Source of the DNA: Elusimicrobiota bacterium
Lineage (GTDB): Bacteria > Elusimicrobiota > Endomicrobiia > CG1-02-37-114 > JAHJSO01
Reading direction: 5' to 3'
Assembly: GCA_043826435.1 (NCBI GenBank)
Contig: JBDRQF010000038.1
Coordinates: 1-64,000, forward strand
Length of the DNA stretch: 64,000 bases
Under the pieces are notes generated by a model that saw only the letters and a list, made by a program, of their open reading frames with translations, was not told the DNA's origin and did no database searches. The position numbers and the translations under genes were made by a program. Shown piece by piece: positions 28,021-48,555 of the stretch; positions within the stretch are counted from its first letter, which is position 1; the number at the start of each line of letters is the position of its first letter.

Positions 28021-28459
28021 GGGCTGGGCACAGAGGTTTATCCTCTGCGGGGGAACCCAGCCCTTGTTATTTTTAGCCGGGCACAGTGTCTCTTAACCTC
28101 TACGGGGGAGGAAGAGTCCTTTGTCCCGGCTTTTGTCATTATAGGCGGGCAGGAGTTCTATCTCTACGGGGGGGAAGGAATATCCTGTCCACCTGCAATT
28201 ATGTATGGCGGACGCACAGGGGTCTACGCTCTACGGGGGAGCAATGACACGCCTGTCGTCCGCCTTGCTATTTTCGGGCGGGCACAGGACCTTACTTCTA
28301 CGGGGGAGAAATGTCTTTGTTGTCCGCCCGGCACTTATCGGCAGGTACAGGGGTTTACTTCTACGGGGAAGAAAAAGTCCTGTTACCTGCCATGGACTTA
28401 TCGGCAGGCACAGGGGTCAACTTCTGCGGGGGAAAACAGAAGGAGTCCTGTTGCCTGCC
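28021..28459 (+). repeat. Array of 7 degenerate hairpin units (about 55-68 nt period), most with a cUACGg apical loop; candidate structured RNA
   Basis: Units follow stem-ACAGG-N-YTCTRCGGGG-N-CCTGT-stem with unit-specific complementary outer stems; unit 1 is truncated. Confidence 0.85.
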
Positions 28460-28475
28460 TTTTGCATAAACTAAA

Positions 28476-31400
28476 ATGATATATAAAAAGGACTCAACCA
28501 TCAGAAGGTTTTTGTGTCTGTCAATCGCAACAGCGATTTTTCTGAGCGGTTTGCCTTTGACAAACACCTATTCATACGCTAATTCAGGCGTCGCCTATCT
28601 GATATGCAGAGTCGTCGGAGAATATGATTCACCATATCCTGTTACCAATCTAACTGCTGACTCAATGGTTATCGGATATTCAACCTGGACTGTTGCAGGG
28701 ACATCCGGCAGAATAAAACTTATCTGGACAGCGCCCGAAGACAGACCGTCAGGCGACCAGCCACATTCATACCTTGTCCGGTATGCAACTTTCAGCATAT
28801 ATGATATAGGAGGGAGTACACAAACGTGGTGGGACCACTCTTCTGCCAGAACGCTTACTTCTTTGAGTCTGCCACCTAACTGGGGCATACCTTCAGAAGT
28901 TTCTCCGCACTCAACTGAAATTAAAACGCTCACGGGTATGTCCCCCGGCGCACATTACTGGTTCGGGATTAAAGCACTTGACAAATTCTATAACCACAGT
29001 GATTTAGACGATAATTCCAGTTCAGTTATATACCAGTCCAGTGCCTTTGCCTCCACTCTTATATCATGGCCTTCCCCGATTACAAGTATAACCGCATTAG
29101 CAGCAGACAATCTACCGGGTGGTATAAAACTCAGGTGGTTTTCACCTTATAATAACAGTGACGATGGTGGTTATTATACAGGCGATATAATAAAAGGTAG
29201 ATACAGAATTGTATATGCTACTCATACGCCACCTTTCTTTGCGGGTGATGACAGGTATAATCCCCAGTCAAAATGGAGCAATTCAAGTTCCATATATATT
29301 TCAACTTCTACAGTTCCTCTTGCTGAACAGACATATTTAATTACAGGACTTCTTTCAAATGCAACCTACTTTTTCCGTATATGGACAGCGGATGAATGGT
29401 ACCTAATTGACAAGGCAACAAACAACTGGTCAGGAGAGTCCTATCCGGCGTTTGCTACACCTTTTGCCTATTATGCGCCGAATGATGTGAAGAACCTGAC
29501 AGCACTATCAAAAGCATCTGTTGATTTGAGCACAGGCAGTTACATAGAACTGAACTGGACGAACCCTGGCAATATTTCCGACCTGGACGGAATAAGAATA
29601 TGCTACAGTACGACGGCATATCCATCCAACAAGGACTTCCCTGTGCAGTTAAATCTCACAGGACTGCCTTATTCAACAACAGATGCTTTCGTTGGATATA
29701 TTCATCTAAAACTGCCACCGAGAACAACCTATTACTACAATATTTTTGCATTCAGTAAGATGGGGCTGTTCTCCGGCGGCGCAATGACATACTGTTACAC
29801 GTCGAAAGATATAATATCCCCTGAGCCCCCCGCGGGCCTTTCAGCCCAGACGGATGCAAACACTTCAAACGGGACATACATCACACTCAACTGGTCAAAC
29901 CCGGACAAGGGGCAGTACAGGAATGCCGACTGGACTGATATAGAAATTTATGTGAGCACATTTTCATCCACGGGACAGCAGTCAACATTTGACGCTTCCC
30001 TTGCCCGGTCGCTTTCAACCTCTGCAACCTTCTATAAATGGACAAATTTAGTCCCGCAGACGACCTATTATTTATGGGTAAGGAATTTAGACGGCGGGAA
30101 TAACTTCTCCTCTTCAACCGTTAAATCGTTTACATGGAAAGACACCGTCCCGCCAGGGGCAATTACAGAAAAGGCATACACACCTTCATATTCGGAAGAC
30201 ATTGATGTCGGATGCAAACTTGATATCTCATTCAGGTATCCGGCCGATTCTGACCTTGACAGGTCCTATGTTACCTACAGAGACGACAAATACCCGTCCA
30301 ATCCTGGCGACGGTATTTCAGAGGAACTTCCGAAACCCTCAGCAGGAGAGAAAATCATCAGAAGTTATAGTGAACTCATCGGGAATACCACTTACTATTT
30401 CAGCATATTCCTGTATGACTGGTCCGGCAATCTGACGACATCAACCGTTATGGGCGTCGTGCCTGTCCCTCAGGACAAAACCCTTCCGTTTATGCCGTTA
30501 GGTATGAAGCCGGTGAAGGAGAACAATACATTTAAACTCTACTGGTCTGCCGTTGAATACCAACACTACATAACTGACGTTTCGTCAATATCCGGGATTA
30601 CCAGTCCGGTGCCGAAGTCCAGCGAACTTTACAGGTATCAGATATACGAGTCGGACGATTGGTCCGACTGGAAATTATTGGCGCGGGTAAAACCCGGTCA
30701 GGCGACTGAAATTTCATTATCAATAGGAGACACCGTTAAATACTATAAGGTCCGTTCCGTTGACATCGGCGGGAATTACAATGATTCAATGATTGCGGAC
30801 AACTCCGACGGACTTAACCTGTATTCATTGGCAGCCGACAATTCCTATGTGGCGATAAGCAGGGAAGTCCAGCCGGTTCTGAACGGTGCAACAAACAACC
30901 TTGGCGGCGATATATACATAAAGTGGACAAGGAACACAGGGCAGGAGAAAGGCCCGATATTCAAATCATGGACGATTGAACCGCACATTATAAACAAAGG
31001 TGTCCTTGAGAAAGTGAAAGGGTTCGGCTTTGGCGAGCCGAAGGCAGAGATATCGCTGATGTACGACGTCGGGACAATATCCTCGCGAGGCCCGCAGATG
31101 AGTTCTGCAATAAGCGAGCCGGAAAAGTGGCTATCAATCTTCTTCCACAACGGCAGGGAATGGCTGAAACTCCCCTCGTCCGTTGACGCCGGCAGAAAGC
31201 GTCTTAGTTGCAATGTGAAATTTATAGGCGATTATCAGATAAGGTATGCCCTGAATTCAACCGAGTTCACTTATTTCAAGGTCATGCCTAAAATTATTAC
31301 GCCGAATAACGACGGGACGAATGATAAGGCGTTATTTATATTTGACAACCCGAAGACGACAAACATTAAAATAAAAATATTTGACTTAACGGGTGCAGAG

Positions 31401-31565
31401 GTGAAAGACCTCGGCGAATACAATCAGCACTCTTATGTAAGCGGGGAGATAAAGTCCTGGGACGGCACTGACTCGCAAGGCAACCGTGTGCCGCCGGGGA
31501 CATATATATATCAACTTGAGGGAGAGGAAAAGGTATTCAATGGAACGATTATCGTTGCAAGGTAA
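28476..31565 (+). CDS. Large secreted FN3/Ig-repeat protein with a CHU_C / type-B T9SS-like C-terminal domain
   Basis: Signal peptide; repeated P..V.NLTA...I.L.W..P and TYYF units; C-terminus PKIITPNNDGTND...IFDL.G...WDG...G.YIY...VFNGTIIVAR. Confidence 0.8.
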   Translation: MIYKKDSTIRRFLCLSIATAIFLSGLPLTNTYSYANSGVAYLICRVVGEYDSPYPVTNLTADSMVIGYSTWTVAGTSGRIKLIWTAPEDRPSGDQPHSYLVRYATFSIYDIGGSTQTWWDHSSARTLTSLSLPPNWGIPSEVSPHSTEIKTLTGMSPGAHYWFGIKALDKFYNHSDLDDNSSSVIYQSSAFASTLISWPSPITSITALAADNLPGGIKLRWFSPYNNSDDGGYYTGDIIKGRYRIVYATHTPPFFAGDDRYNPQSKWSNSSSIYISTSTVPLAEQTYLITGLLSNATYFFRIWTADEWYLIDKATNNWSGESYPAFATPFAYYAPNDVKNLTALSKASVDLSTGSYIELNWTNPGNISDLDGIRICYSTTAYPSNKDFPVQLNLTGLPYSTTDAFVGYIHLKLPPRTTYYYNIFAFSKMGLFSGGAMTYCYTSKDIISPEPPAGLSAQTDANTSNGTYITLNWSNPDKGQYRNADWTDIEIYVSTFSSTGQQSTFDASLARSLSTSATFYKWTNLVPQTTYYLWVRNLDGGNNFSSSTVKSFTWKDTVPPGAITEKAYTPSYSEDIDVGCKLDISFRYPADSDLDRSYVTYRDDKYPSNPGDGISEELPKPSAGEKIIRSYSELIGNTTYYFSIFLYDWSGNLTTSTVMGVVPVPQDKTLPFMPLGMKPVKENNTFKLYWSAVEYQHYITDVSSISGITSPVPKSSELYRYQIYESDDWSDWKLLARVKPGQATEISLSIGDTVKYYKVRSVDIGGNYNDSMIADNSDGLNLYSLAADNSYVAISREVQPVLNGATNNLGGDIYIKWTRNTGQEKGPIFKSWTIEPHIINKGVLEKVKGFGFGEPKAEISLMYDVGTISSRGPQMSSAISEPEKWLSIFFHNGREWLKLPSSVDAGRKRLSCNVKFIGDYQIRYALNSTEFTYFKVMPKIITPNNDGTNDKALFIFDNPKTTNIKIKIFDLTGAEVKDLGEYNQHSYVSGEIKSWDGTDSQGNRVPPGTYIYQLEGEEKVFNGTIIVAR

Positions 31566-31581
31566 TATCATGGAAATTATT

Positions 31582-31769
31582 TGCGGAGCACAGGTGTCTG
31601 CCTCTACGGGGAATAGAAGGCATCCTGTCGCTCCGCAGTGGGATTATTTTGCGGGTACAGGGGTTTACTTCTACGGGGAAGAAAAAGTCCTGTTACCCGC
31701 ATACAATTATCAATCGGGCGGGCGCAGATGTCTATTCTACGGGGGTAGAAAACATTCTGTTGCCTGCCC
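31582..31769 (+). repeat. Second array, 3 units of the same hairpin motif
   Basis: Units at 31582-31637, 31650-31701 and 31716-31769; the second unit has a core identical to 28344-28387. Confidence 0.85.
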
Positions 31770-31804
31770 CGGAATTATCATCAATTTCAAACAGGGGGAC
31801 TTAA

Positions 31805-33361
31805 ATGAAAATCTCAAAAACTAAAATTCAAAAATTCCTGGCAGCGCTTCTGCTACTAATCTTAATGTTGCCGGTTGTGTCAGAGGCGGCATTTGAGCAG
31901 ATATCCGTAGGCGCCCGTCCCGCAGGGCTCGGCGGCGCCTACACCGCCCTTTCCGATGATGTGTATTCCGTTTACTACAACCCCGCGGGGCTTGCCCTTA
32001 TACCGCGGACAGAACTCACAACCCAGTATTCACAGTTATACATGGGTCTTTGGGATAACTCAGCGCTGGCATACTCTTTTGTCGGCATTGCCCAGCCGAT
32101 AAAATTCGCAAAGGACTTCGGGACTGTCGGCTTATCCTGGCTGCAGTTTAATTCAAGTAACCTGTACAAGGAAAATACCATGGCTCTGTCTTACGGGAAG
32201 AATTTCCGCATCGGTGGGAAGCCGCTCCTGGATTTGGGGATAAACCTGAAATCGCTTTCATTGGGTTACGGCGAACACGAATACACTTACGATGCCCTGA
32301 CGGACGACGGTGTTACCTGGTCATCCTCCCAGGGTGGCGGGACTAAACGGGCCGATTCGCTATTTGAAAAATACGGTTTTGACAAGTCCGCATTTACCAT
32401 TGACTTCGGCGCAAGATATTCAATTTTCAGAAATTATCGACTGGGACTTATGGTTTCAAACATAACGGAGCCGAATATCGCCCTTGACCCGTCGGTTGAC
32501 GCAAAACTCAGCAGGGCGATAAACTTAGGGATAGCCCACACAGGCCCGAACTACAATCTGGGGTTTGACTTTATGACGAAACAGTTTAATAAACTGACGG
32601 ATTCAAGGATTGCGGTTGCGGGTGAGCAGTACTTTCCGTTCGGGCTGGGTATAAGGGCAAGTTTGGTGACAGGCACGAGGAACCTGTTTAATTTCTCCTG
32701 CGGTTTCGGTTACAGGACCGACGTCCTGCAACTTGACTATGCGATTGAGTATCCCTTGACCGGAATAAAATCTACATTGGGCAGCCACAGGGTTTCGCTG
32801 ATAGTGAGGTTCGGACCTGTGATGAGGTTTGAAGCGCCGGGCACGGAACTCCAGGAGAAACTGTCCGAAACCGAGAGAAAACTTAAGTCAGCGAACGTTG
32901 AAATAGAAAAACTCAGGAAAGACCTGGATGAATTGCTGAAAAAGCCGTCGGCAGTCATTCCGAAGCCGCCTGAGAAACCGTCAGCCCCTGCGGTTGCCGC
33001 CCCTGCGAAACCGGAAGCAGACGACGTCCGGTCGCAATATAATAAGGACTATTCCGACTACAGGAAACAGGCGGAGAAAATGAAATTTGCCGACCGCATA
33101 GGAAAAATAAAATCAATCGTTGACGCATATCATGGAAAAACAGACGTATCTGAAGCAGAAAGGGAATACAAGATTCTTCTTGAAGAACAAGGGACGCAGA
33201 CAAAGATGTATAAGGACAGCATGATTTACTACAGAAAAATGACGCTCGGTGGGATTGACAACAAAACAAAGGTTGACCTTCTCAGGAGAATCATTACGAA
33301 ATACGAACCGTATGACATTGAACTAAAAGAGGCAAAGGAAGAACTTGAAAAACTAAAGTAA
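31805..33361 (+). CDS. PorV/PorQ (UPF0164)-like outer-membrane beta-barrel with C-terminal helical extension
   Basis: GARPAGLGGAYTALSDD...YYNPAGL plug motif, alternating beta strands, LDYA...HRVSL.VRF; then coiled coil and Pro/Ala linker. Confidence 0.8.
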   Translation: MKISKTKIQKFLAALLLLILMLPVVSEAAFEQISVGARPAGLGGAYTALSDDVYSVYYNPAGLALIPRTELTTQYSQLYMGLWDNSALAYSFVGIAQPIKFAKDFGTVGLSWLQFNSSNLYKENTMALSYGKNFRIGGKPLLDLGINLKSLSLGYGEHEYTYDALTDDGVTWSSSQGGGTKRADSLFEKYGFDKSAFTIDFGARYSIFRNYRLGLMVSNITEPNIALDPSVDAKLSRAINLGIAHTGPNYNLGFDFMTKQFNKLTDSRIAVAGEQYFPFGLGIRASLVTGTRNLFNFSCGFGYRTDVLQLDYAIEYPLTGIKSTLGSHRVSLIVRFGPVMRFEAPGTELQEKLSETERKLKSANVEIEKLRKDLDELLKKPSAVIPKPPEKPSAPAVAAPAKPEADDVRSQYNKDYSDYRKQAEKMKFADRIGKIKSIVDAYHGKTDVSEAEREYKILLEEQGTQTKMYKDSMIYYRKMTLGGIDNKTKVDLLRRIITKYEPYDIELKEAKEELEKLK

Positions 33362-33383
33362 GAAGTTGTCGTTGCGAAAACCC

Positions 33384-33520
33384 TGTCATTGCGAGGAGCC
33401 CCCACGCTCTGCTCGGGGTAAACTCCGCGACGAAGCAATCTGCTTTGTTGATGAGATTGCTTCACTTCGTTCGCAATGACATGTGTCGTTTGAGATTGCT
33501 TCACTTTGCTCGCAATGACA
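33384..33520. repeat. REP-like cluster, one forward and two inverted copies
   Basis: tgtcattgcgagg...gaagcaatc; gattgcttc...cgcaatgaca x2. Confidence 0.85.
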
Positions 33521-33569
33521 TGAAAGAGTGTCAATCAATTATACAGACACCAATTTGGGGAGGCCCAAA

Positions 33570-33968
33570 ATGCTTAAAACGATTATTCTTTGTTTATTCG
33601 TGTTGTTCGCCGATGGTTTGTTCCGGACAGGCAGGTTTTCAGCGGAGCAACTTGACTTTGAATTGAAAAAAGTGTATCCTAAAATTATCACGCCTGGCAC
33701 TGGACAGCAGGATAACAATCTAGTTTTCTTTGAATTTTACGAACCGCGATCGGGCGATTTTTCCATTTTGATATACGACACGGCGGGGTTCAGGGTCAGG
33801 GAAATATCATCCCTTGATAAAAAACCATTTTCACAATCGTCAATGAATTACTACCTCTCATGGGACGGGACGGACATGAACAACGCAGGCGTTCCACCCG
33901 GGGTTTACGTTTATTGTCTTGAAAATGGCAGGAGGGTTTTCAACGGCACAATCATTGTGGCAAGATAG
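33570..33968 (+). CDS. Small secreted protein consisting almost solely of a CHU_C/FlgD-Ig sorting-type domain
   Basis: GGGGAGG RBS; hydrophobic N-terminus; PKIITP...IYD..G...WDGTD...VPPGVYVY...VFNGTIIVAR. Confidence 0.8.
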   Translation: MLKTIILCLFVLFADGLFRTGRFSAEQLDFELKKVYPKIITPGTGQQDNNLVFFEFYEPRSGDFSILIYDTAGFRVREISSLDKKPFSQSSMNYYLSWDGTDMNNAGVPPGVYVYCLENGRRVFNGTIIVAR

Positions 33969-33981
33969 GATAACCAAATGT

Positions 33982-34082
33982 TGTCATTGCGACCACGAGC
34001 CCCACAGGGGCGTGGTGGGAAGCAATCGCATGTTCCACTCATAAAATAAAGGGGATTGCTTCGGCTACGCCTCGCAATGACA
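33982..34082. repeat. REP-like inverted pair
   Basis: tgtcattgcga...gaagcaatc then gattgcttcggctacgcctcgcaatgaca. Confidence 0.8.
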
Positions 34083-34095
34083 GATGGAGGTAGCT

Positions 34096-35526
34096 ATGTC
34101 AATAAGAACGCGGCTTTTTATTGCTTTCGGAGTGCTGGTGTCAGTCGTAATACTGATTAGCGCCATATTCATTTTTTACACGCAACAGACAAGGTCGCTG
34201 CTTGAGAAAAGCATCTACACCTCTACGAAACTTTCTGTATGGAAAGAGATATCCGTTTCGTTTGAAAGGCAGGTCCGCGCCCTTAACTATTTTCTGGTAC
34301 TCGGGGATATCGCCGAGAAGGAAAGGTTTACGGAACAGACGGAAATTATTAAAGACCGGATTAAGAAGGGCGCAATGGAATCCGGTAATGCCGATTTTAT
34401 AACCCTGTATGACAATTTCACCCGCCTGTCAAACCAGTTCTTCAGGATAAAAGAGGGAAATATTTTCCAGTTTTACGAGTCAAGGATATCCGCCCCGCAG
34501 AAGTCAATACAGAAGACAATAGAGAGTAAAATCACCGACTATACGGGGGCCCTTAACCTTTATGAAACGACAATACAGAAATTCAGCAGGGTGAATTCCA
34601 TAATCTCAATAGGGTTCGGCATTGGAGCGGTGATAATCGGTTTTTTTCTCGGGCTGACCACTTTCAGGTCTATATGGAATCCGCTGAAAGGTCTCATTAT
34701 GGGGACCGTTGAAATCGGTTCTGGTAATCTGGAATACAAGATAAATGTCGGTTCGGGCCACGAGATAGCCCGTTTGGCGAACAGTTTTAACAAGATGGTT
34801 GAAGACCTGAAAAACATGCAACTGCAGGTTGTCCAGATGGACAGGATGTCAAGCATAGGTCAGCTGGCAGGAGGGGTGGCGCATGAAATCAACAACCCCC
34901 TGACCGGGGTGCTCGGCCAGACGCAACTGCTTCTTGAGAAGACCCCTGAGACCGACCCTTCCTTTTCAAACCTGCAGAAGATTGAACAGGCGGCGCAGAG
35001 GTGCAGGAAAATTGTCCGGGCTTTACTGGATTTCGCCCGTGAGAAAAACTACGTGTTTAAGGAAATGCCGCTTGAAAAGATAATGGATGAAACGCTTGCT
35101 TTTTGCGAGTCGGAAATGAGGTCCGCAAAAATAGAGATAATAAAAAACATACCGCCGGATATACCCGGTGTCAGGGTCTCATCAAGCCATATCCAGCAGG
35201 TTTTCCTTAACGTAATCAACAACGCAATATATGCGATGTCTCACGGCACAGACAAGGGAGCGGCGAGGGGCAAGTTGTTTATCACTGCAAGGAGAAACAA
35301 TAACTCGGTTGACATATCTTTCAGGGATACCGGGATAGGCATCAAAAAGGAGGACATTAACCACATTTTTGACCCGTTCTGGACAACAAAGGACATAGGC
35401 AAGGGGACAGGACTGGGCCTGACGGTAAGTTACGGGATTATACAGAAACACAATGGGAAAATTGTCGCTCATAGCGAGGGGGAGGGGAAAGGGACTGAAA
35501 TTCTGGTGTCCCTGCTGCTGAAATGA
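34096..35526 (+). CDS. Membrane sensor histidine kinase (HAMP, NtrB-like)
   Basis: 2 TM segments, HAMP, AHEINNPL H-box, N-box, DTGIGI, GKGTGLGL. Confidence 0.93.
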   Translation: MSIRTRLFIAFGVLVSVVILISAIFIFYTQQTRSLLEKSIYTSTKLSVWKEISVSFERQVRALNYFLVLGDIAEKERFTEQTEIIKDRIKKGAMESGNADFITLYDNFTRLSNQFFRIKEGNIFQFYESRISAPQKSIQKTIESKITDYTGALNLYETTIQKFSRVNSIISIGFGIGAVIIGFFLGLTTFRSIWNPLKGLIMGTVEIGSGNLEYKINVGSGHEIARLANSFNKMVEDLKNMQLQVVQMDRMSSIGQLAGGVAHEINNPLTGVLGQTQLLLEKTPETDPSFSNLQKIEQAAQRCRKIVRALLDFAREKNYVFKEMPLEKIMDETLAFCESEMRSAKIEIIKNIPPDIPGVRVSSSHIQQVFLNVINNAIYAMSHGTDKGAARGKLFITARRNNNSVDISFRDTGIGIKKEDINHIFDPFWTTKDIGKGTGLGLTVSYGIIQKHNGKIVAHSEGEGKGTEILVSLLLK

Positions 35527-35876
35527 TATTCGTAATAGAAGACGATCCCGACGTGATGGCGCTGATAAAAGACGTGTTCACGGAGAAGGGGATACCCGCC
35601 ATGTTTTTTTCTTCAGCCACGGCGGGTTTAAGGGAGATTGTGAAATCCCACCCCGACCTTGTGATTATGGACCTGATGATGCCGCATATATCGGGTTTTG
35701 AGATTTGCAGGTATATCAGGGCTGACATGAAACTGAAAAACATAAAAATAATGGTCATTACGGGCTATGACTCGCCGAAGGTCAGGCGGGAAATATTCAG
35801 TTACGGCATTGATGACTACATTTCAAAGCCGTTTGATATTGATGAATTTCTGGAAAAGGTGAGCAGGTTTATTTAA
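35523..35876 (+). CDS. Single-domain response regulator
   Basis: IEDD, MDLMMP..SG, ITG, SKPF. Confidence 0.92.
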   Translation: MIFVIEDDPDVMALIKDVFTEKGIPAMFFSSATAGLREIVKSHPDLVIMDLMMPHISGFEICRYIRADMKLKNIKIMVITGYDSPKVRREIFSYGIDDYISKPFDIDEFLEKVSRFI

Positions 35877-35886
35877 CAGAAAATTA

Positions 35887-35916
35887 TTGACAATTATGGA
35901 CAGAATGTGGTATAAT
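35887..35916 (+). promoter_or_regulatory. sigma70 promoter with extended -10
   Basis: TTGACA-18 bp-TATAAT preceded by TGn. Confidence 0.7.
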
Positions 35917-35930
35917 AATACCAGTAAGTG

Positions 35931-36039
35931 TGTCATTGCGAGGCGAAGCCGAAGCAATCTTTCTTATGTCATTGCGAGGGGCGAAGTCCCGAAGCAATCC
36001 CTATTCGTTATGTCGTTGCGAGGCGAAGCCGAAGCAATC
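35931..36039 (+). repeat. Three tandem REP-like elements in the leader of the giant gene
   Basis: tgtc(a/g)ttgcgagg...gaagcaatc x3. Confidence 0.85.
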
Positions 36040-36113
36040 TCTCTTTATGGGTAGTTGGTGTTTGCCGGGATGTTGCCGGGTTTTGGGTCAATAAGTTTTT
36101 GGGTTACTTGAAA

Positions 36114-42100: not shown

Positions 42101-42971
42101 GGAAGCCCTCAACGGCATAAAAGAATTAAAATATACGATCGCCTCATACCAGATTGTAACAGGCACGGAAACGCCTGATGTCCTGTCGTACTGGAATACA
42201 ACGGCCGACAGCAGCGTATCCTTTTCCGACATAAACTTGAAGCACAATACCGTGTATCACCTCTGGCTTAAGGTCTATAGCACCGACGATTTTGTCAGGA
42301 CAAAAAACATTGAGTTTAAGGTTGATACCACACCGCCGCCTGCACCCAATGCACCCGTACACACGGCCAGGAACGGTGTGTCAGCCGCACAGTCGCAGAA
42401 CTCATACTGGGTTTCATGGTCAGCCGTGTCCGACGCAGAGTCAGACATAATGTTCTACGAACTCCAGGAACGCTTGGACACTTCGCCCGTGTGGGTAAGC
42501 GTAAGCAGTACGATAGCACCGTCAATCACCGACTACCAGATAAAGAACAAGGAAGAAGGGAAGTTTTACTATTACCGTGTCAGGGCAAGGAACTATGCGG
42601 GGACATGGGGAAGTTTCTCTTCGGATTCAAAGGCGGCGTATTTATCATTGCCGTCAGGGCCGATAGAACAATTGGCGAACTATCCTAATCCGTTTGATTC
42701 CCGTTATCAGAAAACGACGATTACCTATATTCTAAAAGAGGACTCGGAAGTCACAGTGAGAATTTTTGACCTATTCGGCATTCCTGTTACCACAATGCAC
42801 TTTCTAAAAGGGCAGAGCCCCGGTGGGGTGCAGGGGGCGAACAACATTTTATGGGATGCTACCAACGACCAGGGGCAGAAGATTGTCCAGGGGATGTATA
42901 TAATGTCCGTTGAGGTAAAATCAGACAGTTCAACCATTCGCAAGAACTGGAAAATAGGAGTGATACATTGA
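36114..42971 (+). CDS. Giant (2285 aa) secreted surface protein: DUF2341-like, FN3, Ycf48/BNR propeller, Ig repeats, FlgD-Ig / type-A T9SS-like C-terminal domain
   Basis: Signal peptide from ATG 36114; LTDYQI..SIRFT..HWTE..WVRV..IYMYYGN; repeated GWAVG..G....T.DGG.TW; NYPNPF...TITY.L...IFDL.G...WD..ND.G..GMY. Confidence 0.85.
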   Translation: MAKRLAVCFFLCVVVVFLAAGDSHALWWVETNSTDWNDGYFYRSTSTVDDLRIREWTDWLGSTWTQRMVIVINNENNPNTLTDYQITLTTNTKILVDANRMDPQGNSIRFTESDGVTIIPHWTEFWNITTSTGSKFWVRVSTIPANLSSKEIYMYYGNVSTNNVSNRGAVLDLYEDWESGEIAYGTKWFGSDSEPFRIAIDTYTSSSDFDMVYRGTYSVCNANILDTQISGIYTNLNVSMPVKINFWWSRYGENQEDYPEFLIDGISRGQLKAQIIPPPWTAAQFNTTYSGLITIKWRYYKNPGTTVLPDRGWIDNIVVTKYADPEPTVFVPYSETKTNYYSSAKYHSDVLVTQGENSIVNYTSWSVSGIGTTKIYMRASDTSFLVTATLPSWAQVYDESKPSGIQGKYIQYQAEFTSDGSTAPSLGEISIEYRSPPPPPKNFMATTISTSVILWTWEDQANVVMSTSTYVYRIYMSTRALTAGGVGGYVSPGTSSLGLWKELTGDTTFWYEDNLIANKGYTRSVVAANDVGGNVGSPAMVMKYTRAVPPNVKSEYFRFLPISGSEYVPISTGVWHQHKYFGATTGNFVSQISSGPGTIQYYRVDWATVSFRAWNNNETRWEPVVSTVTHPDSGETITKKPEVLQQATLNRNSWYFHVASYNGDNELSTSSVLGPFYFNGCPSTITDLVALPSTSQEGCVILRWTAPYADSTFNNISSGKYYLKYRENFNISNDSQFDAAAGLVKLTTTVANQRETYVISGLIPGNTYWFAIKAEDSEGNKSELFVTTDTAIFFNRRTTAAKIAKIAFKTSPQTYSVGETAAQIFVETQDSANNPLAVAEDTNIYLYTDSSEGEFATTLSPTPNWTASGQGFVKVLKGTSTAAGFWYRDKKAGTPRITCDEGPDKQWTAGEQIQSVVPGSAVKFRIVYDTPNNYDSITKEPYPSNSTLWSEKTAFIQAIDGYGNISDRYRGGIISTTTPAEQAMIPSSHTFTAVDGGSKTVKIQNFYIAGPAWTKVQEVTDENYRDVYFYDENTGWAVGDKGTVKKTGNKGSSWYSQIYGASTLNGLNGVYFFDMFTGWAAGQAGRIIKTVDGGNTWSAQNSGSSAILYGVYFVNASTGFACGASGTLLKTYDGGSPWFSSNTGLPVNDLHSVYFIDENSGWVAGKNGSVYRTTDSGANWVSVSVPGLTTQNLYNIRFLTRKAAPGTGFIVGNSSEIYRTTDGGTSWTGVNSSTSQIIYDIDFNDPNTGIAAGSNGAIVRTTNGGTSWSVMSSTYTKSFYCADFYSAGFALGAEGTIVKSPDLGLTWAQWLMEGKSAVLNWKGTVFVPASDSFPPPATLRMGRDNQAMFLLGMRILNYQTGDNAKLTTVIFDKTGTINNAEASSVTVKLYRDTGDRQFSPTGDTFKGQTMFSPGTGQATFSGLSETLSGTTVYYFIVLNIPVLSDIINDTIGVRFPQNAFTIEAGGVPMARNNLAYSVPPATIVPSSCTVSFMDTDIAPTETTQGTKDLQVFRFDMSTDRSDSPWRRLTVERTGQNTADSDIDKVSVYAISVAPENFISSGVFSAGICNINFSNAPLIITTTQQFFVTMDISPNARYSTDTDTATVGLRLFSTTNYVRLDTDGMNGISPSGKEIASKLVKINVAYDMVLISPVFLTVPEIYQGEEKAFLALNISIDANNATWTRMRLGKTGTAGDSDITSASLYRDYDGNGSFNVNIDTYVAGSNFSGGISDIVFATPETIDRVLPQYATYFVTLKIAKTSGIDKTVAIRVATQTYVTVALPDRVSSANFPIQSSTATIKDYPDTVQATLTDMAPYDARVDETVLAGKIQLVTYVDATFQSLRLAHEGSASTDAVRTIRFYSDYNSDGGFSASDDMLIATASFNSSGIGMLNFATPPVIRDSTRTFFVVIELNPDKAEPGKNIGFGVDYTGFQYNLPNMGNNFGYFRCSLVKLLDRRTPTVPAVDLQFDNPTPVRISGRDVYFTNKSAEIKFNWRSEALNGIKELKYTIASYQIVTGTETPDVLSYWNTTADSSVSFSDINLKHNTVYHLWLKVYSTDDFVRTKNIEFKVDTTPPPAPNAPVHTARNGVSAAQSQNSYWVSWSAVSDAESDIMFYELQERLDTSPVWVSVSSTIAPSITDYQIKNKEEGKFYYYRVRARNYAGTWGSFSSDSKAAYLSLPSGPIEQLANYPNPFDSRYQKTTITYILKEDSEVTVRIFDLFGIPVTTMHFLKGQSPGGVQGANNILWDATNDQGQKIVQGMYIMSVEVKSDSSTIRKNWKIGVIH

Positions 42972-42992
42972 GAGTAACTATTCACTCATCCG

Positions 42993-43196
42993 TGTCATTG
43001 CGAGGAGCGTTAGCGACGAGGCAATCTCATAAGACAAAGGGGATTGCTTCGGCTGTGCCTCGCAATGACAGGGTGGGCAAGGGGATTGCTTCGGCTGTGC
43101 CTCGCAATGACAGGGTGGGCAAGGGGATTGCTTCGGCTGCGCCTCGCAATGACAGGGTGGGCAAGGGGATTGCTTCGGCTGCGCCTCGCAATGACA
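42993..43196. repeat. REP-like cluster, one forward and four tandem inverted copies (42-bp period)
   Basis: gattgcttcggctg(t/c)gcctcgcaatgaca x4 separated by gggtgggcaaggg. Confidence 0.92.
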
Positions 43197-43198
43197 AT

Positions 43199-44806
43199 AT
43201 GAACAAGGTGCTTGCCGCCCTGTTGTCTTTCCCCGTGTGCCTTATGATAGCAGCCGGTTGTTTCGCCGCAGGCACCGACCCGTCTGCATTCCTGTCTTAC
43301 GGGGCTGGCGGCAGGGCTTTCGGCCTCGGGGGCGCCTATGCAGGGATATCCGAAGACGCAACCGCCACTTATTACAACCCGGCTGCTCTCGGGGCGCTCC
43401 AGTATAAGCAACTGCTAACGTCCTACTCAACCCTGTGGGAAAACACGGATTACAGTTATGCCGGCTACACCCACCCTCTGGTGGATGCGGGAGCGTTGGG
43501 TTTTAACATTGTCCGGCTTTATTCAGGCGGGGCTGAACGCAGGGATATTTATAACAAGCCACAGGGGAATTTTGACCACTCGCGCACAGGCATAACGGTG
43601 GGTTACGGTAAGGGCATATACAAAAACATTTATGCGGGGCTTAACGGCAAATTCATTAATTCAGTCCTGGACACGAACACGGCGAATTACTTTTCCGTTG
43701 ACGTCGCGGGTTATTACCGTATAAACCACGTGCTGAGCATAGGCGCCAACCTCCAGAACGTAATTCCCATAACGATGAGCAGTACCGACGACCGCCTGCC
43801 GCTGAATTTCAAGATGGGAGCGGGTTACAAGGTATTCGGGGACAAAGTGTTGTTTGCGGTTGACCTGAACAAGAACTCGGGACGCAGTTCCAGTATCATT
43901 GATTTTTATTCATTGGGGCTGGAGAGCAGACCTTTTAATTTCTTGAGTTTCCGCCTTGGCAAAAACGTCCATGAGGTTACTGCCGGTTTCGGTTTGAAAC
44001 AATCCATAACAGGCATTATATTTTCTCTTGACTATGCAGTCGCAATGCATGATTATTTAGGGGTTTCGCACAGGGCGTCTCTTGATTTCAGGTTCGGCAG
44101 GAGTATAGAAGAGATAAAACTTGCCCGGAAAACACAGGAGGACTCATCCGTCAGTGAACTGAAACCCGAAGAGATAATGATTAAAGAACAGAAAGAAGAC
44201 AAATTCAGGGCACTGTATCAGGATGCGGTTGAAAGTTATAAACAGGGACTGTTTTCAATCGCACTTGAGAAATTCAATGCGGCAAAGGAAATTTTACCCG
44301 AAGACACGCTTGTGCCGGTCTATATTGAGCGGCTTGGTACAATCGTCGGGGTGATAACTCAGCACATAAGTTCCGGGAAGACAGGCGATCTTCTCAGGAG
44401 GGGGGTTGCATACTTCGTTGAAGGTGATGGTGAAAGCGCCGTCAAGACGATTGCTTATCTTCTCTCCATTGAGCCGGAGAATTTTACGGTTGAACGGCTT
44501 CTGAACCGCCTGGAGGAGAAAACAGGGATTAAGGCGGAGAAATCAACCCCGATGACAAACCTGTCTGTTGTGGAACAGAAATTATATGAGTGCTTAATAC
44601 ATTTCAAGAAGAGGGATTTCTGGAAAGCGATATCCCTGTGTGAACAGATACTTGTTCTTGAACCCGACAATGTGGCCGCTTACAAGCGAATGGGAAGCGC
44701 GTTTTATGCTCTCGGGGAAAAAGAAAAGGCAAAAGAGGTCTGGCAGAAAGCCCTTTTAATACAGCCCGACCCGAAGTTGAAGGACTTTATTGAAAAAATG
44801 AAATAA
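43199..44806 (+). CDS. PorV/PorQ-like outer-membrane barrel with C-terminal TPRs
   Basis: AFLSYGAGGRAFGLGGAY.G..EDA.A.YYNPA, LDYA...HRASL.FRF; TPR helices (AYKRMGSAFYALG..A...WQKAL). Confidence 0.82.
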   Translation: MNKVLAALLSFPVCLMIAAGCFAAGTDPSAFLSYGAGGRAFGLGGAYAGISEDATATYYNPAALGALQYKQLLTSYSTLWENTDYSYAGYTHPLVDAGALGFNIVRLYSGGAERRDIYNKPQGNFDHSRTGITVGYGKGIYKNIYAGLNGKFINSVLDTNTANYFSVDVAGYYRINHVLSIGANLQNVIPITMSSTDDRLPLNFKMGAGYKVFGDKVLFAVDLNKNSGRSSSIIDFYSLGLESRPFNFLSFRLGKNVHEVTAGFGLKQSITGIIFSLDYAVAMHDYLGVSHRASLDFRFGRSIEEIKLARKTQEDSSVSELKPEEIMIKEQKEDKFRALYQDAVESYKQGLFSIALEKFNAAKEILPEDTLVPVYIERLGTIVGVITQHISSGKTGDLLRRGVAYFVEGDGESAVKTIAYLLSIEPENFTVERLLNRLEEKTGIKAEKSTPMTNLSVVEQKLYECLIHFKKRDFWKAISLCEQILVLEPDNVAAYKRMGSAFYALGEKEKAKEVWQKALLIQPDPKLKDFIEKMK

Positions 44807-44824
44807 AACAAGGGGAAAGTATAT

Positions 44825-46306
44825 ATGGGTGTTATATTGCTCCTGTGCGTGTTGATTGGTTTTTGTCCCGAAACAATGGCCCAGTCCATGATGGAACAAA
44901 AACTGGCCCTTGAGAGCTCAATCCAGGAGAGGACGGAGAGAATCGTAGAGAAAATAATCGGTTCCAGAGAGACAGTGGTTCTTGTGAATGTTGAACTGGC
45001 GACTGAGAAATCCAAAACCGAGAGGCCGCTTTACCCCGGTATGACCGGCTCACAGGAGGAATATCTGCCGGGGATAACATATTCCTATGTTCCCCTTGAC
45101 CTTGAGGCGGCAGGGTATTCAAATGTAACAATCAAAAAAATAAACATATCTATAACTGTTGACACAAAAATTACCACGCCTGTGGTTGACAGGATTAAGA
45201 AAGAAATTACATCGCTTATGGGTCTCAATACCCTCAGGGGTGACGTTGTGGACGTTCAGAAGATTGTGTTTTCGTCAAAAAAGATTAACTGGGGGGAGCA
45301 ACTGCTGAACTTGTTTTCAAATTTATACTGGATTGCTGTTCTCGGACTTATCGCACTGTTTCTTTTCGGGCCGCTCAGGAACTTCTTTAAGACAATCGTA
45401 AAGGCGATGGAAATCAGAATAGATGCGGATACAAAAATAAGGAATTATGACGATGCGTCGCGTGCGGGTATCGGCGGAGGCAATCCTTTTATGCCGTCAG
45501 GCCCCATAGAACTTACGCTGGACAGAAAAAGACCTCAACTAAAGAAAGGGGAAGAAGAACAAATGAAGATGAAAAAGTTCGGGTTCATTGACGCCAACAA
45601 CCTTAAGAATCTTATTTTCCTGCTGAAAGAAGAAAAACCGGAGAAGATTGCAATACTCACGAGTTATCTGTCTTCCGAGTTCACGTCGCAGGTTATTAAT
45701 TCTCTCCCGCCGAAGAAACAGGCGCAGGTTGCTCTCACGCTTACGATGCCCAGAATAATTGACCCGCAGGAGGTTGACGAACTGGAGAAGGAAATGAAGC
45801 AAAAGATTGACTACCTCGTCGGCGGGGACGATTATTTTATGAATTTGCTTGACCAGGTTGATATTGAAACGCAGGAAAATATTTTGCAGAATCTGGAAGG
45901 GACAAACCCCGCGCTGGCGACAAAGATAAGACAGGTGCTTTTCTTCTTTAACGACATCGTAATCCTTGACAAGCAGGTCCTGCAGAAGGTTATAAGGGAG
46001 ATCCAGAAGCAGGGGCTGTCCCTTGCGCTTGCGCTCAAAGGCGCAGCGGATGGGGTAAAATCAAAGGTTATGGAAACATTGACCGAAGGAGCCAGGGCGA
46101 TGCTTGCCGAGCAGATTGACCTCCTGGGAGACGTAACGGAAAAGAGGGCTCAGGATGAACAGAAGCAGATTGCAATAATTATCAAGCAGTTAGAAAGGGC
46201 GGGGGAGATTATTATTGACAGGGGCAAAAAGTTTAATATCATTGATGAGGACAAATCAACCGCAGTCGTACCGGAAGAGGTAAACGGAGAAGAAAGGAGT
46301 ATATAA
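44825..46306 (+). CDS. FliF(RBM3)-like ring domain fused to FliG middle/C-terminal domains
   Basis: Signal peptide; IKKINISITVD...MGLNTLRGDVVDV (FliF C-terminal pattern); one TM; EKPEKIAILTSYL, GG, FFFNDI, LALALKGA, GEIII (FliG pattern). Confidence 0.8.
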   Translation: MGVILLLCVLIGFCPETMAQSMMEQKLALESSIQERTERIVEKIIGSRETVVLVNVELATEKSKTERPLYPGMTGSQEEYLPGITYSYVPLDLEAAGYSNVTIKKINISITVDTKITTPVVDRIKKEITSLMGLNTLRGDVVDVQKIVFSSKKINWGEQLLNLFSNLYWIAVLGLIALFLFGPLRNFFKTIVKAMEIRIDADTKIRNYDDASRAGIGGGNPFMPSGPIELTLDRKRPQLKKGEEEQMKMKKFGFIDANNLKNLIFLLKEEKPEKIAILTSYLSSEFTSQVINSLPPKKQAQVALTLTMPRIIDPQEVDELEKEMKQKIDYLVGGDDYFMNLLDQVDIETQENILQNLEGTNPALATKIRQVLFFFNDIVILDKQVLQKVIREIQKQGLSLALALKGAADGVKSKVMETLTEGARAMLAEQIDLLGDVTEKRAQDEQKQIAIIIKQLERAGEIIIDRGKKFNIIDEDKSTAVVPEEVNGEERSI

Positions 46307-46309
46307 CTT

Positions 46310-47089
46310 ATGGACTTTATGACAATTACGGGGTTGTTGGTTGGCGGGCTTGCAGTGTATTATGCCCTGGCAGTGGGGGGTATAGGGGATCTTATATTTA
46401 ATCTACCTGCTGCAGTTCTGGTATTCGGTGGAACACTTGGAGCGACCATGGTTACATATCCATGGTCAATATTTAGCAGGGTGCCAAAAGCGGTAGGACT
46501 GATGCTATTCCCCCCAAAGCGACTTTCGCCGGAACACTATATTACACTTCTGGTGCAACTTTCAGAGAGGGCAAAAAAATCAGGTATTGACAGTTTACAG
46601 GATGACATACCGAAAATACAGGACCCATTTTTAGTGGATGGATTACAGATGCTTCTGGACGGCCTGGATGCAAATATGGTCAGGGAGAACCTGGACAAAG
46701 AAATCGTTTTTTTGAGACGCAGGCATTCCCAGCTTACCTCTGTTTTCAGAAGTATGGGCACCTATGCCCCAATATTCGGTCTTCTCGGAACCCTTATAGG
46801 TGTTGTTCAGGTTTTGCAGAACCTTACTGACCCCACGTCCATTGGTGCGGCTATGGCTGTGGCGGTTGTCACAACTTTCTATGGGATATTCAGCACAAAT
46901 TTTTTCTATCTGCCGACTGCAGGAAAACTGGATTCTTTAACCGAGCAGGAGGTCCTCCTGAAAGAGGTTGCTATTGAGGGGATCTTAGCCATACAAAAAG
47001 GGGATATCCCGATGATTGTTTCCCGCAAACTGCATGCCTATCTGGCGTACAAAATAAGACAATTCCACCGAAAGAAAGAGACTAAATAA
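46310..47089 (+). CDS. motA: MotA/PomA-family stator subunit
   Basis: VFGGTLGA, DPFL..GLQML.DG, APIFGLLGTLIG, AVVTTFYG, P...KL, EGILAIQ.G. Confidence 0.93.
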   Translation: MDFMTITGLLVGGLAVYYALAVGGIGDLIFNLPAAVLVFGGTLGATMVTYPWSIFSRVPKAVGLMLFPPKRLSPEHYITLLVQLSERAKKSGIDSLQDDIPKIQDPFLVDGLQMLLDGLDANMVRENLDKEIVFLRRRHSQLTSVFRSMGTYAPIFGLLGTLIGVVQVLQNLTDPTSIGAAMAVAVVTTFYGIFSTNFFYLPTAGKLDSLTEQEVLLKEVAIEGILAIQKGDIPMIVSRKLHAYLAYKIRQFHRKKETK

Positions 47090-47095
47090 ATTAAA

Positions 47096-47758
47096 ATGCC
47101 GCCAGAAACGAAACAAAAAGAACAGGAAAAAATTAGCAGGGAACAAAAATCAAACGAAAAACAGATATGGCTTACTGTTTACTCTGATATGACGACGAAC
47201 CTCGCCTTATTTTTTCTTATATTGTTTTCCCTTACCCGTCTCAGCGCTCCCCAGCGGGAAAAACTTTATGAATCGCTGAAAAAACAGTATAAAGAAAAAA
47301 CAAAGCAGGAAGAGGTGCAGGTCGTAAAAGAAGAGGAGCAGAAGAAAAAGGATGTGGATGAGTTAAAAAAATTAGCGTATGTGGAAGAAACACAACAACA
47401 GATAAAGATAACCCTGCCAAGCCCCGTGCTTTTTGATTTAAACAAGGTGGAACTCAAAACACAGGCGATGAATATACTTTCGCAGATAGCGACGGTTCTG
47501 AAGGGCTCTGATTATCCGATTATTGTGGAGGGACATACTGATAACCTCCCGGTTTATGGCGGGAGATACCCTTCCAACTGGCACCTCTCTTCTGCAAGGG
47601 CTTTCTCTGTGATAGAATATTTTGTTAATGAGGGGAAGATTAACCCTAAAAGGTTTTCGGCGATGGGTCATGCTGAATACAGGCCCGTTGTTCCAAATGA
47701 TACAGAAGAAAACCGTTCCATAAACAGGAGAATTGAAATTATAGTGGTAAAGATATGA
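47096..47758 (+). CDS. motB: MotB-family stator subunit 1 (Asp retained)
   Basis: WLTVYSDMTT TM motif; OmpA-like domain EGHTD, NWHLSSARA, NRRIEI. Confidence 0.92.
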   Translation: MPPETKQKEQEKISREQKSNEKQIWLTVYSDMTTNLALFFLILFSLTRLSAPQREKLYESLKKQYKEKTKQEEVQVVKEEEQKKKDVDELKKLAYVEETQQQIKITLPSPVLFDLNKVELKTQAMNILSQIATVLKGSDYPIIVEGHTDNLPVYGGRYPSNWHLSSARAFSVIEYFVNEGKINPKRFSAMGHAEYRPVVPNDTEENRSINRRIEIIVVKI

Positions 47759-48447
47759 GTGCTGAAAATAACAAAAAAAGTTATTCGGAAGAAAATATAG
47801 AAATCGGGGAAACAATTGACCCCGGTTCTGCGTGGCTGATACCTTATGGGAACATGATGACCATCCTGATGGTATTCTTTTTAATCCTTTATGTATTTTC
47901 TTACCAGGCGGACAGCGCTACCTATGAGAGGGTCGTGACAAAGATTCAAAAGGAATTTACGACCAAGGGGGAAAAGGCGGAAAAAATAGCCAGGAAGGCG
48001 CAGGAAGCGGAACAGGTTGAAAAGATGGCGGAGTATTTTGCTGAAAAGGGTTTTGACAAATTCGCCAAAGTTGAGATTAATGCCGAGAGGGTCAGGGTTA
48101 CCCTTTCAAATCCTGTGCTTTTTTCACTCGGTGAGGCGGTTCTTAAACCAGAGGCGAAACTCCTTTTAAAGCCCATATCCGAACTCACCAAGATTCTCCC
48201 TTCAAAAATAATAATTGAAGGACATACTGACAACCTCCCGATTTATGGCGGTAAATACAAATCAAACTGGGAACTCTCGGCGGACAGGGCGATAAGCGTG
48301 GTCAGATATATGGTTAATGAAGAAGATGTCGCTCCTGAAAGGTTTGCTGTGGCGGGATATGGAGAGTTTCGTCCGGTAGCGCCAAACGATACCGAGGACA
48401 ACAGGGGGAAAAACAGAAGGATAGAGATAGTACTTTTGCGGTCATAA
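47755..48447 (+). CDS. motB: MotB-family stator subunit 2 (conserved Asp replaced by Asn)
   Basis: AWLIPYGNMMT TM motif; EGHTD, NWELSADRA, NRRIEI. Confidence 0.9.
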   Translation: MSAENNKKSYSEENIEIGETIDPGSAWLIPYGNMMTILMVFFLILYVFSYQADSATYERVVTKIQKEFTTKGEKAEKIARKAQEAEQVEKMAEYFAEKGFDKFAKVEINAERVRVTLSNPVLFSLGEAVLKPEAKLLLKPISELTKILPSKIIIEGHTDNLPIYGGKYKSNWELSADRAISVVRYMVNEEDVAPERFAVAGYGEFRPVAPNDTEDNRGKNRRIEIVLLRS

Positions 48448-48479
48448 ACTGGCGCCCTTTAATTTTTTTTAAAAAACCC

Positions 48480-48507
48480 TTGACATTTCTCAAAAAACCG
48501 TTATACT
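48480..48507 (+). promoter_or_regulatory. sigma70 promoter candidate
   Basis: TTGACA-16 bp-TATACT with ttttttttaaaaaaccc upstream. Confidence 0.65.
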
Positions 48508-48555
48508 AATAATGTTTACAATTTTGTAACCTATGATACCGGAGGGATATAAAAT

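Follow-up and report, generated by a model that had tools for sequence, protein, structure and literature searches.

A FliF–FliG fusion encoded with MotAB-type stator genes and a PorV-like barrel in Elusimicrobiota: a candidate non-flagellar rotor–stator machine

The DNA analysed here (hereafter the window) is a stretch of 64,000 nucleotides from an Elusimicrobiota bacterium (GenBank assembly GCA_043826435.1, contig JBDRQF010000038.1, positions 1 to 64,000). On its forward strand, a tight block of five genes at 43199–48447 encodes a PorV-like barrel with a tetratricopeptide-repeat (TPR) tail, a fusion of the flagellar rotor proteins FliF and FliG, MotA, MotB and a second MotB (MotB′), with intergenic gaps of 18, 3, 6 and −4 bp. 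We read this block as encoding a stand-alone, non-flagellar rotor–stator machine that is made of flagellar motor core parts and acts through the TPR domain on an outer-membrane surface-protein complex. This reading is tentative, and is held with slightly less confidence than would make it probable. The genes of the block are

43199–44806, + strand: PorV-like barrel with TPR tail (NCBIfam PorV_fam, structural model and Foldseek)
44825–46306, + strand: rotor protein, FliF–FliG fusion (Pfam, structural model and Foldseek)
46310–47089, + strand: MotA-type stator A subunit (MotA_ExbB, 84.4 bits)
47096–47758, + strand: MotB, with plug, OmpA-like peptidoglycan-binding domain and the proton-carrying Asp
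47755–48447, + strand: MotB paralogue (MotB′), with plug, OmpA-like domain and Asn at the position of E. coli Asp32

The rotor protein was matched by three Pfam models (YscJ_FliF_C, 26 bits for a cut-off of 23.8; FliG_M, 46.7 bits; FliG_C, 83.4 bits) and was modelled with a predicted local distance difference test score (pLDDT) of 76.2. From the N-terminus it consists of a hydrophobic signal or transmembrane helix, a periplasmic domain resembling the third ring-building motif (RBM3) and collar of FliF, a transmembrane helix, a disordered glycine-rich linker and the middle and C-terminal (torque) domains of FliG, both of which are present. The periplasmic part of ~130 residues is a single α-β-β-α-β motif with a conserved 40-residue loop inserted between the first two strands. 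Foldseek searches matched this part to the RBM3/collar of the Salmonella MS-ring (PDB entries 6sd1, 7bk0 and 6sd3; E values of 1e-3 to 4e-3, probability 1.0) and the C-terminal half to a FliG structure comprising the middle and C-terminal domains (1lkv; E = 5.4e-11), with ~34% identity to Thermotoga FliG. Of the three ring-building motifs of full-length FliF, only RBM3/collar was found; neither Pfam, the model nor Foldseek gave a match to RBM1 or RBM2, the parts of FliF that house the export gate. An alignment of the fusion was built from 29 sequences. By alignment with E. coli FliG, two of the five charged residues of the torque helix are kept (Lys264 and the acidic residue at 288), and positions 281, 289 and 297 are occupied by Gly, Gln and Thr.

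Aligned with its E. coli counterpart, MotA retains both channel prolines (Pro173 and Pro222) and has Lys in place of Arg90 and Gln in place of Glu98. Its best NCBIfam matches were the flagellar MotA, PomA and MotP models (187–205 bits, all under the equivalog cut-offs); TolQ was matched only with an E value of 0.0034. The protein thus has the channel prolines and the closer affinity to MotA/PomA than to TolQ/ExbB that mark a flagellar-type MotA. MotB has the features of the flagellar protein (Asp32, plug and OmpA-like domain), whereas MotB′ lacks the Asp. The first MotB carries Asp in every system in which the position is covered. MotB′ carries Asn in nine of the 12 aligned two-MotB systems (Asp in L012, L019 and L022; contigs, related loci, genomes and families are given here under our own handles C, L, G and f) and also in a further two-MotB system, G147:C3. 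Asn-type second MotB genes were located in the window and at C33:3-518, L014, L016, L017, L018, L021, L023, L024 and L075:4883-5632. As far as sequence can tell, the Asp/Asn pair implies either that the putative stator has a single protonatable site or that one of its subunits is regulatory, and it offers a natural experiment on the number of proton sites that a stator needs.

The barrel scored 113.7 bits with the NCBIfam PorV_fam model (cut-off 90) and was modelled with a pLDDT of 85.3 as 14 strands followed by 11 helices. The top folds in Foldseek were chain F of 8gl6 (E = 1.4e-11) and chain F of 6h3i (E = 1.2e-09), both structures of the type IX secretion system (T9SS) translocon; we take these chains to be PorV. 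FadL-type channels ranked after them. The C-terminal TPR domain of ~220 residues would be periplasmic. The barrel gene likely starts at the ATG at 43199 and not at the listed TTG at 42968, because 23 aligned orthologues align from there and the preceding 76 codons translate a repeat. The 227 bases upstream of the ATG hold four copies of this 42-bp element, the 13-base core of which has 45 matches over 15 contigs of the genome. The element resembles repetitive extragenic palindromic (REP) sequences and forms tandem arrays in intergenic spacers (42972–43198, and also ~22010–23119, 34069 and 35932). It lengthens the 5′ ends of called open reading frames (ORFs), including those of the barrel and of the giant protein encoded next to it, and its translation yields spurious protein matches.

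The whole assembly (1.83 Mb, 96.7% complete) was searched for other flagellar parts. The models were run in parallel on 14 control genomes, four of them flagellated: FHIPEP/FlhA gave matches in five (over the cut-off in the four flagellated genomes), and Flg_bb_rod and FliMN_C each gave matches in the four flagellated genomes. In the 96.7%-complete genome there was no match to FHIPEP/FlhA, Flg_bb_rod or FliMN_C; flagellin, FlhB and FliP were not searched for. FliG_C occurs twice. Across the phylum we used one set of 201 genomes, each at least 80% complete, in which the TPR domain of the barrel was scored at E values up to 1e-15. FliG_C was found in 69 of these genomes (51 of 74 genera), the TPR domain in 65 and FlhA in five. 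FliG_C and the TPR domain occur together in 64 genomes, the TPR domain alone in one (88% complete) and neither in 131. The five genomes with FliG_C only comprise three with FlhA and a FliG of canonical size, one with a canonical-size FliG and no FlhA, and one with a 499-residue fusion. Since related genomes are not independent, the co-occurrence is a pattern and not a statistic. The proposal in the initial annotation that the motor is non-flagellar is borne out by these results: no export gate, rod/hook or FliM/N gene was found in the genome, and 64 genomes of the phylum have FliG_C without FlhA.

True flagella are probably present in some lineages of the phylum, as judged by the pairing of FlhA with a FliG of canonical size (G062, G060, G102, G168 and G117). 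Among these, the flagellated G062 has canonical FliG and FlhA and, in addition, two fusions (L069, L072, L073). In a tree of the FliG middle and C-terminal domains, 37 fused proteins are separated from 14 canonical ones by a branch with 100/100 support; E. coli FliG and three sequences of flagellated Elusimicrobiota belong to the canonical set. Of 1.84 billion representative sequences searched with a profile, 1051 proteins matched at E values up to 1e-30. The best 150 of these are nearly all full-length (450–750 residues), so the fused family is large, with at least 150 clusters at 50% identity. Genomes of the phylum carry several paralogous motor copies, and nearly all of the matches listed have intact frames. 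Look-alikes in the ESM Atlas from Cloacimonadota, Bdellovibrionota, Bacteroidota and Thermodesulfobacteriota are regarded as leads only.

Gene order was compared over 34 related loci, obtained by scanning species-representative genomes with the alignment of the 29 fusions; neighbouring genes were assigned by profile matches (by hand in L033). All but two of the loci (32 of 34) are titled Elusimicrobiota or one of its classes, and the exceptions, titled Ignavibacteria and Thermodesulfovibrio, nest within Elusimicrobiota in the tree. The titles of L045 (Ca. Endomicrobium trichonymphae), L014 and L016 do not fit their sequences, which are near-identical to or nested among Elusimicrobiota entries; binning or labelling errors likely lie behind them. 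L045 was not used as an instance of retention in an endosymbiont, its sequence being near-identical to groundwater sequences in the tree. At least 1.7 kb of upstream sequence was available in 32 loci, and 24 of them carry a barrel-TPR gene immediately 5′ of the fusion and co-oriented with it. With 64 of the 65 TPR-positive genomes also containing FliG_C, the linkage between motor and barrel that the initial annotation had proposed is conserved. Two outcomes had been named there as telling against the proposal, a complete flagellar gene set elsewhere that uses these stators and a lack of conserved linkage in related genomes; neither was found. A correlation between the pairwise identities of fusions and barrels (ρ = 0.87–0.92) was considered as evidence of contact and rejected, as it shows only inheritance as a unit.

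The loci were grouped by gene order. Type A loci read (kinase, receiver), giant protein, barrel-TPR, fusion of ~490 residues, MotA, MotB and MotB′. Type B loci read barrel-TPR, fusion of 610–700 residues, a proline-rich coiled-coil protein of 705–1079 residues, FlbD (PF06289, E = 4.5e-25), MotA and a single MotB, with the order flbD-motA-motB kept; the type B fusion carries an extra C-terminal TPR (seen in L031). The coiled-coil protein (L031:11229-13592, L045:5742-7889 and C39:1-2748) has a long proline-rich start (PPPLPP-like) and no transmembrane segment. Together with the presumably cytoplasmic C-terminal TPR of the fusion, it may form a cytoplasmic partner pair. The five type A′ loci lie among cell-wall and housekeeping genes, with a class A penicillin-binding protein (PBP) 5′ and Amidase_3 3′; profile comparison of the loci gave no upstream barrel and no barrel or TPR match in them. 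In a third form, a TPR lipoprotein of ~285 residues takes the place of the barrel. Locus G147:C3 encodes, in order, a FecR-domain protein, the fusion, MotA, MotB (Asp), MotB′ (Asn) and a 285-residue TPR protein, and the signal peptide and lipobox-like cysteine of the latter suggest that it would be lipid-anchored in the outer membrane. A TPR search of the phylum sample also found TPR-only ORFs of ~300 residues ~3 kb 3′ of fusions of 480–520 residues. Judged by gene content, the most regular putative partner of the motor is the TPR domain, whether or not a barrel accompanies it, the exceptions being the five type A′ loci; this domain is more regular than PorV or CTD (C-terminal domain) cargo because the module also occurs without a barrel.

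A cyclic di-GMP (c-di-GMP) riboswitch lies directly 5′ of the barrel gene in all four type B loci tested (L030, L035, L037 and L042) and in none of the three type A loci; the window has no riboswitch match at E values up to 1. Within this genome, a third system is split over the ends of contigs C12, C39 and C29. Contig C12 holds a 3881-residue protein, a c-di-GMP-I riboswitch (C12:11868-11957, 71.7 bits), a 549-residue PorV-TPR barrel (134.8 bits) and the first ~90 codons of a fusion, so that the order from barrel-TPR to fusion is the same as in the window. A homologue of the long type B coiled-coil protein occupies the start of contig C39 (1-2748), and C29 holds FlbD, MotA and MotB. The position of the riboswitch directly 5′ of the barrel gene, in type B and on C12, suggests that the motor operon starts with the barrel gene there.

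The genome was also searched for T9SS components. The initial annotation had noted the lack of gldKLMN and sprA genes in the window. The window does lack any T9SS core gene; however, a distant SprA-like gene is present elsewhere in the genome (C36:35005-40224, 1738 residues), which matched TIGR04189 in collinear pieces (E = 2.5e-36, 124.5 bits for a cut-off of 200). This gene for an SprA-like outer-membrane protein sits among housekeeping genes (gap, pgk and lptFG). The Pfam model SprA_N had no match in the genome and missed the gene found by NCBIfam, so negatives from single models are weak here. No GldM (PF12081 and TIGR03517), GldL (TIGR03513) or GldN (TIGR03523) was found in the genome, and GldK was not searched for; these negatives are weak because the models had no working positive control (the NCBIfam GldL, GldM and GldN models gave no match in any control genome, and PF12081 matched only two, below its cut-off). 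More than 30 ORFs match PorV/PorP-like barrels, and with the PorU profile CTD tails were detected at 17 places, spread over about a dozen large ORFs. All 17 matches are confined to the C-terminal CTD part of the profile and the catalytic part of PorU was not found in the genome, so CTDs may stay bound to barrels. There are 38 ORFs of at least 1000 residues in the 1.83-Mb genome, many with a CTD-like tail and often beside barrel ORFs. The genome invests very heavily in barrel-anchored surface proteins. Separate TolQ/ExbB-type genes are present as well. The SprA-like gene was found in 178 of the 201 genomes of the phylum sample, including families f4 (SprA-like 44/64, FliG_C 1/64, TPR 0/64) and f19 (57/59, 0/59 and 0/59, respectively). 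This frequency suggests a T9SS-like translocon, putative on sequence grounds, beyond the phyla in which the T9SS has been described.

The machine could work as follows. The fusion would assemble through its FliF RBM3/collar domain into a ring in the inner membrane, with FliG on the cytoplasmic face. The OmpA-like domains of MotB and MotB′ would fix these subunits to peptidoglycan; driven by ion flow, MotA and the two MotBs would push the C-terminal domain of FliG as in the flagellum, and the ring would rotate. The periplasmic face of the ring would meet the conserved TPR domain anchored in the outer membrane, which would replace the rod and export gate and which in this locus is the tail of the PorV-like barrel. 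As PorV and PorQ would suggest by analogy, this barrel may hold the C-terminal domain of the giant protein encoded just 5′. The torque or force of the motor may then move, turn or load the outer-membrane surface-protein complex, without being a general secretion engine; movement of adhesins by the motor is, by analogy, possible. Control may be exerted by the adjacent kinase and receiver here and by the c-di-GMP riboswitch in the sister operon type. A more specific form of this mechanism, which we hold to be somewhat unlikely, is a new surface organelle: the FliF–FliG ring turned by MotAB would spin or drag the barrel by its TPR tail and the giant adhesin would move along, giving rotary or gliding-like movement or the attachment and release of particles, switched by c-di-GMP or the two-component system. 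If true, such an organelle would be the injectisome in reverse, descended from the flagellum with its torque generator retained and its export apparatus lost.

Several observations weigh against a machine of this kind. Both the ring domain and the TPR domain are short, and the space between the two membranes contains peptidoglycan. Of the sequencing runs listed as containing positions 41000–49000, the DNA runs are groundwater metagenomes, and none is an RNA run. With FliG Arg281 and Arg297 and MotA Glu98 replaced, only part of the canonical charge pairing is preserved, and the second MotB is without the essential Asp. The motor copy on contig C33, which adjoins a hydrolase and a transporter, consists of a 491-residue fusion, MotA, MotB and, where the contig ends, a partial MotB of the Asn type, with no barrel. 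Eight of the 32 evaluable loci have no barrel 5′ of the fusion (the five type A′ loci, L028, L029 and L044), and the giant protein adjoins the motor, as a homologue 5′ of the barrel, in only 11 of the 34 loci.

Several other explanations compete with this one. The motor could perform a Tol–Pal-like envelope or cell-wall task, in which a link driven by the proton-motive force runs from the inner membrane through peptidoglycan to an outer-membrane TPR protein and serves constriction, tethering or wall remodelling, the giant proteins being incidental. The TPR partner can indeed be a plain lipoprotein, type A′ operons lie beside PBP and amidase genes, there are several paralogous copies per genome and most loci have no giant protein. 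However, the genome has its own TolQ/ExbB-type genes, the module was not found in two large families, which fits an accessory over a core envelope role, and the c-di-GMP riboswitch is a form of control that is more typical of surface-behaviour genes; on balance we regard an envelope task as unlikely. A further candidate role is that of an energiser of secretion, with the motor replacing GldLM/PorLM and powering CTD export through the SprA-like translocon or hand-over to PorV-like barrels. It is consistent with a genome that contains the SprA-like gene, more than 30 barrel matches and CTD tails at 17 places, that gave no match to GldL, GldM or GldN, and that encodes a PorV-like barrel next to the motor. 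The Gld negatives came without a working positive control, however, and there are motor copies with no barrel or CTD cargo nearby. Above all, the SprA-like gene is common in f4 and f19, families nearly without FliG_C or the TPR barrel, and we consider the explanation distinctly unlikely. For the same reason, a general role in energising secretion, as the initial annotation had suggested, is unlikely; a role in the secretion of particular cargo would be compatible with the distribution of the SprA-like gene and is possible.

The altered residues raise the question of whether the motor turns at all. In a non-rotating platform or sensor, FliF–FliG would bind MotAB-like channels in a signalling or brake-like manner and be read out by the adjacent kinases. 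The absence of Arg281 and Arg297 from FliG and of Glu98 from MotA, the MotB paralogue without the proton-carrying Asp and the kinase and receiver genes in the operon would all suit a static assembly of this type. It is nevertheless improbable, given that the MotB Asp is kept in every system examined, that both channel prolines of MotA are kept and Lys90 faces a conserved acidic FliG residue, and that type B keeps FlbD, a stator helper in Bacillus and Borrelia. As for the genes being decaying remnants of a flagellum, or parts of a real flagellum encoded elsewhere in the genome, it can be said that five of the 201 genomes have FlhA, some with canonical FliG. Against this stand the intact frames of nearly all listed matches, the several paralogues per genome, the size of the fused family (at least 150 clusters), the separation of the fused clade from canonical FliG, including that of flagellated members (G062 has both), and the lack of FlhA, rod and FliM/N matches in a 96.7%-complete genome. 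This explanation is close to refuted.

The rotor–stator machine proposed here can be compared with several known systems. With the flagellar motor core (FliF MS-ring, FliG, MotA5B2 and FlbD/SwrD) it shares the FliG middle and C-terminal domains, ~34% identical to those of Thermotoga, the RBM3/collar ring domain, the flagellar-type MotA and MotB and, in type B, the flbD-motA-motB order. It differs in that of FliF only a single ring-building domain remains and the N-terminal ring region is unmatched, FliG is without a separate N-terminal domain and forms one polypeptide with FliF, an outer-membrane TPR/PorV-like partner and a second MotB (Asn in place of Asp) are present, and the genome is without FlhA, rod/hook or FliM/N matches (flagellin, FlhB and FliP not having been searched for). 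Like the T9SS with its GldLM/PorLM motor, it combines an ion-driven inner-membrane motor of the 5:2 superfamily with genes for the handling of CTD surface proteins: both profile and fold mark the barrel as PorV-like, putative CTD cargo is encoded nearby (a 1029-residue protein over the CHU_C cut-off, the 2347-residue giant protein below threshold), and a type-B-like CTD protein lies beside a PorP-like barrel, an arrangement of the SprB/SprF kind. Unlike the T9SS, it has FliF–FliG as rotor and no GldM shaft, no match to GldL, GldM or GldN (models without a positive control), no catalytic part of PorU, and an SprA-like gene that is distant (124.5 bits against 200) and also occurs in families without the motor.

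Fusions of FliF to FliG have been engineered in Salmonella and Vibrio and likewise join a ring-forming FliF part and FliG in one polypeptide; the Vibrio fusion is reported to form rings (PMC11481574, PMC10941966). The engineered fusions are laboratory constructs with full-length FliF in a complete flagellum, whereas the fusion here is natural, has a minimal FliF and is found without a flagellum. The AglRQS–Glt gliding motor of Myxococcus likewise pairs a MotA/TolQ-type channel with two different B subunits and, as is proposed here, transmits force to adhesion proteins of the outer membrane and the cell surface. In contrast to the module described here, AglRQS is TolQR-like and is not known to contain FliG or FliF parts. 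A full-text literature search (supplements excluded) found no published description of a natural FliF–FliG fusion or of this operon. Elusimicrobia are described in one report as lacking flagellar genes and as binding strongly to cellulose particles (PMC7031533).

FliG and FliF have been treated as specific to flagella, and rotor genes without a filament are usually read as decay. Here, the torque core is kept intact, fused and duplicated, together with an outer-membrane partner, and it occurs in most of the families sampled from a phylum that mostly lacks flagella. Were the module a true motor, it would add a new output to those of the 5:2 ion-driven motors (flagellum, Tol, Ton, GldLM, Agl and Zorya), and diderm bacteria would have a novel means of driving processes at their surface. 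Torque generation could then also be studied in a naturally minimal rotor, in which FliG is joined to a single ring-building domain. With respect to flagellar evolution, the module would be either a stripped-down descendant of the flagellum or a relative of a pre-flagellar rotor.

The motor block is surrounded by further genes, which are listed below with the repeat-containing spacer.

28476–31565, + strand: fn3 protein with CHU_C/T9SS type-B sorting domain, 1029 residues (Pfam and NCBIfam)
31805–33361, + strand: weak PorV/PorP-like barrel, 518 residues (NCBIfam, below cut-off)
33528–33968, + strand: stand-alone CTD-like protein, 146 residues (CHU_C, 22.8 bits for a cut-off of 27)
34084–35526, + strand: sensor histidine kinase, HAMP-HisKA-HATPase (Pfam)
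35523–35876, + strand: receiver-only (CheY-like) response regulator (Response_reg, 94.5 bits)
35928–42971, + strand: giant surface protein, 2347 residues, with DUF2341, BNR/Ycf48 β-propeller repeats, fn3 and a T9SS-like C-terminal domain (Pfam)
42972–43198, no strand: spacer with four tandem copies of the 42-bp dispersed REP-like repeat (sequence)
48556–50370, + strand: Glu/Leu/Gln/Arg/Lys-rich protein, 604 residues (no Pfam or NCBIfam match)

All of the genes listed in the initial annotation are present and co-oriented on the + strand (28476–48447). The histidine kinase and receiver, the genes of which overlap by 4 bp, also lie inside this cluster and had not been listed. The CTD-like tail of the giant protein is encoded at 42663–42947 and matches the CTD part of the PorU profile (E = 4.9e-10); with sorting-domain families the protein remained below threshold (FlgD_ig, 23.3 against 27). 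Its gene is likelier to start at an ATG near 36114, because the first ~60 codons of the listed ORF translate the dispersed repeat. Relatives of the kinase accompany type A and A′ systems: homologues lie 5′, with a receiver homologue, in L019, L020 and L025, and 3′ of MotB′ in L017, L018, L021 and L024. The motor block is followed by the 604-residue protein and then by a hybrid kinase. The 604-residue protein has no transmembrane or signal segment and is predicted to be a cytoplasmic coiled coil; homologues 3′ of MotB′ were found only in L012 and L022, and in position it may correspond to the giant coiled-coil protein of type B operons.

The genes at 28476–33968 had been taken as part of one cluster with the motor. 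They instead probably form a separate pair of CTD protein and barrel: profile comparison found no relatives of the three genes in any of the 34 loci, and many pairs of a CTD protein and a PorP/PorV-like barrel like this one occur elsewhere in the genome, e.g. on C39. The region is probably a separate module beside the motor unit, and the conserved unit more likely starts at the kinase (34084). The 1029-residue protein scored 40.8 bits with CHU_C (cut-off 27) and 31.1 bits with TIGR04131 (cut-off 35), and its tail is matched by the 146-residue protein in phmmer (5.7e-19). Of the two PorV-like barrels that had been described, the one at 43199 is over the cut-off, whereas the 518-residue barrel at 31805–33361 is below all cut-offs (PorV_fam, 46 bits against 90; PorP_fam, 32 against 90.55). 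Three ORFs 5′ of the 1029-residue protein (25882–28479) have no family match; two have signal-peptide-like N-termini, and one of the three has a paralogue beside another giant protein on contig C53.

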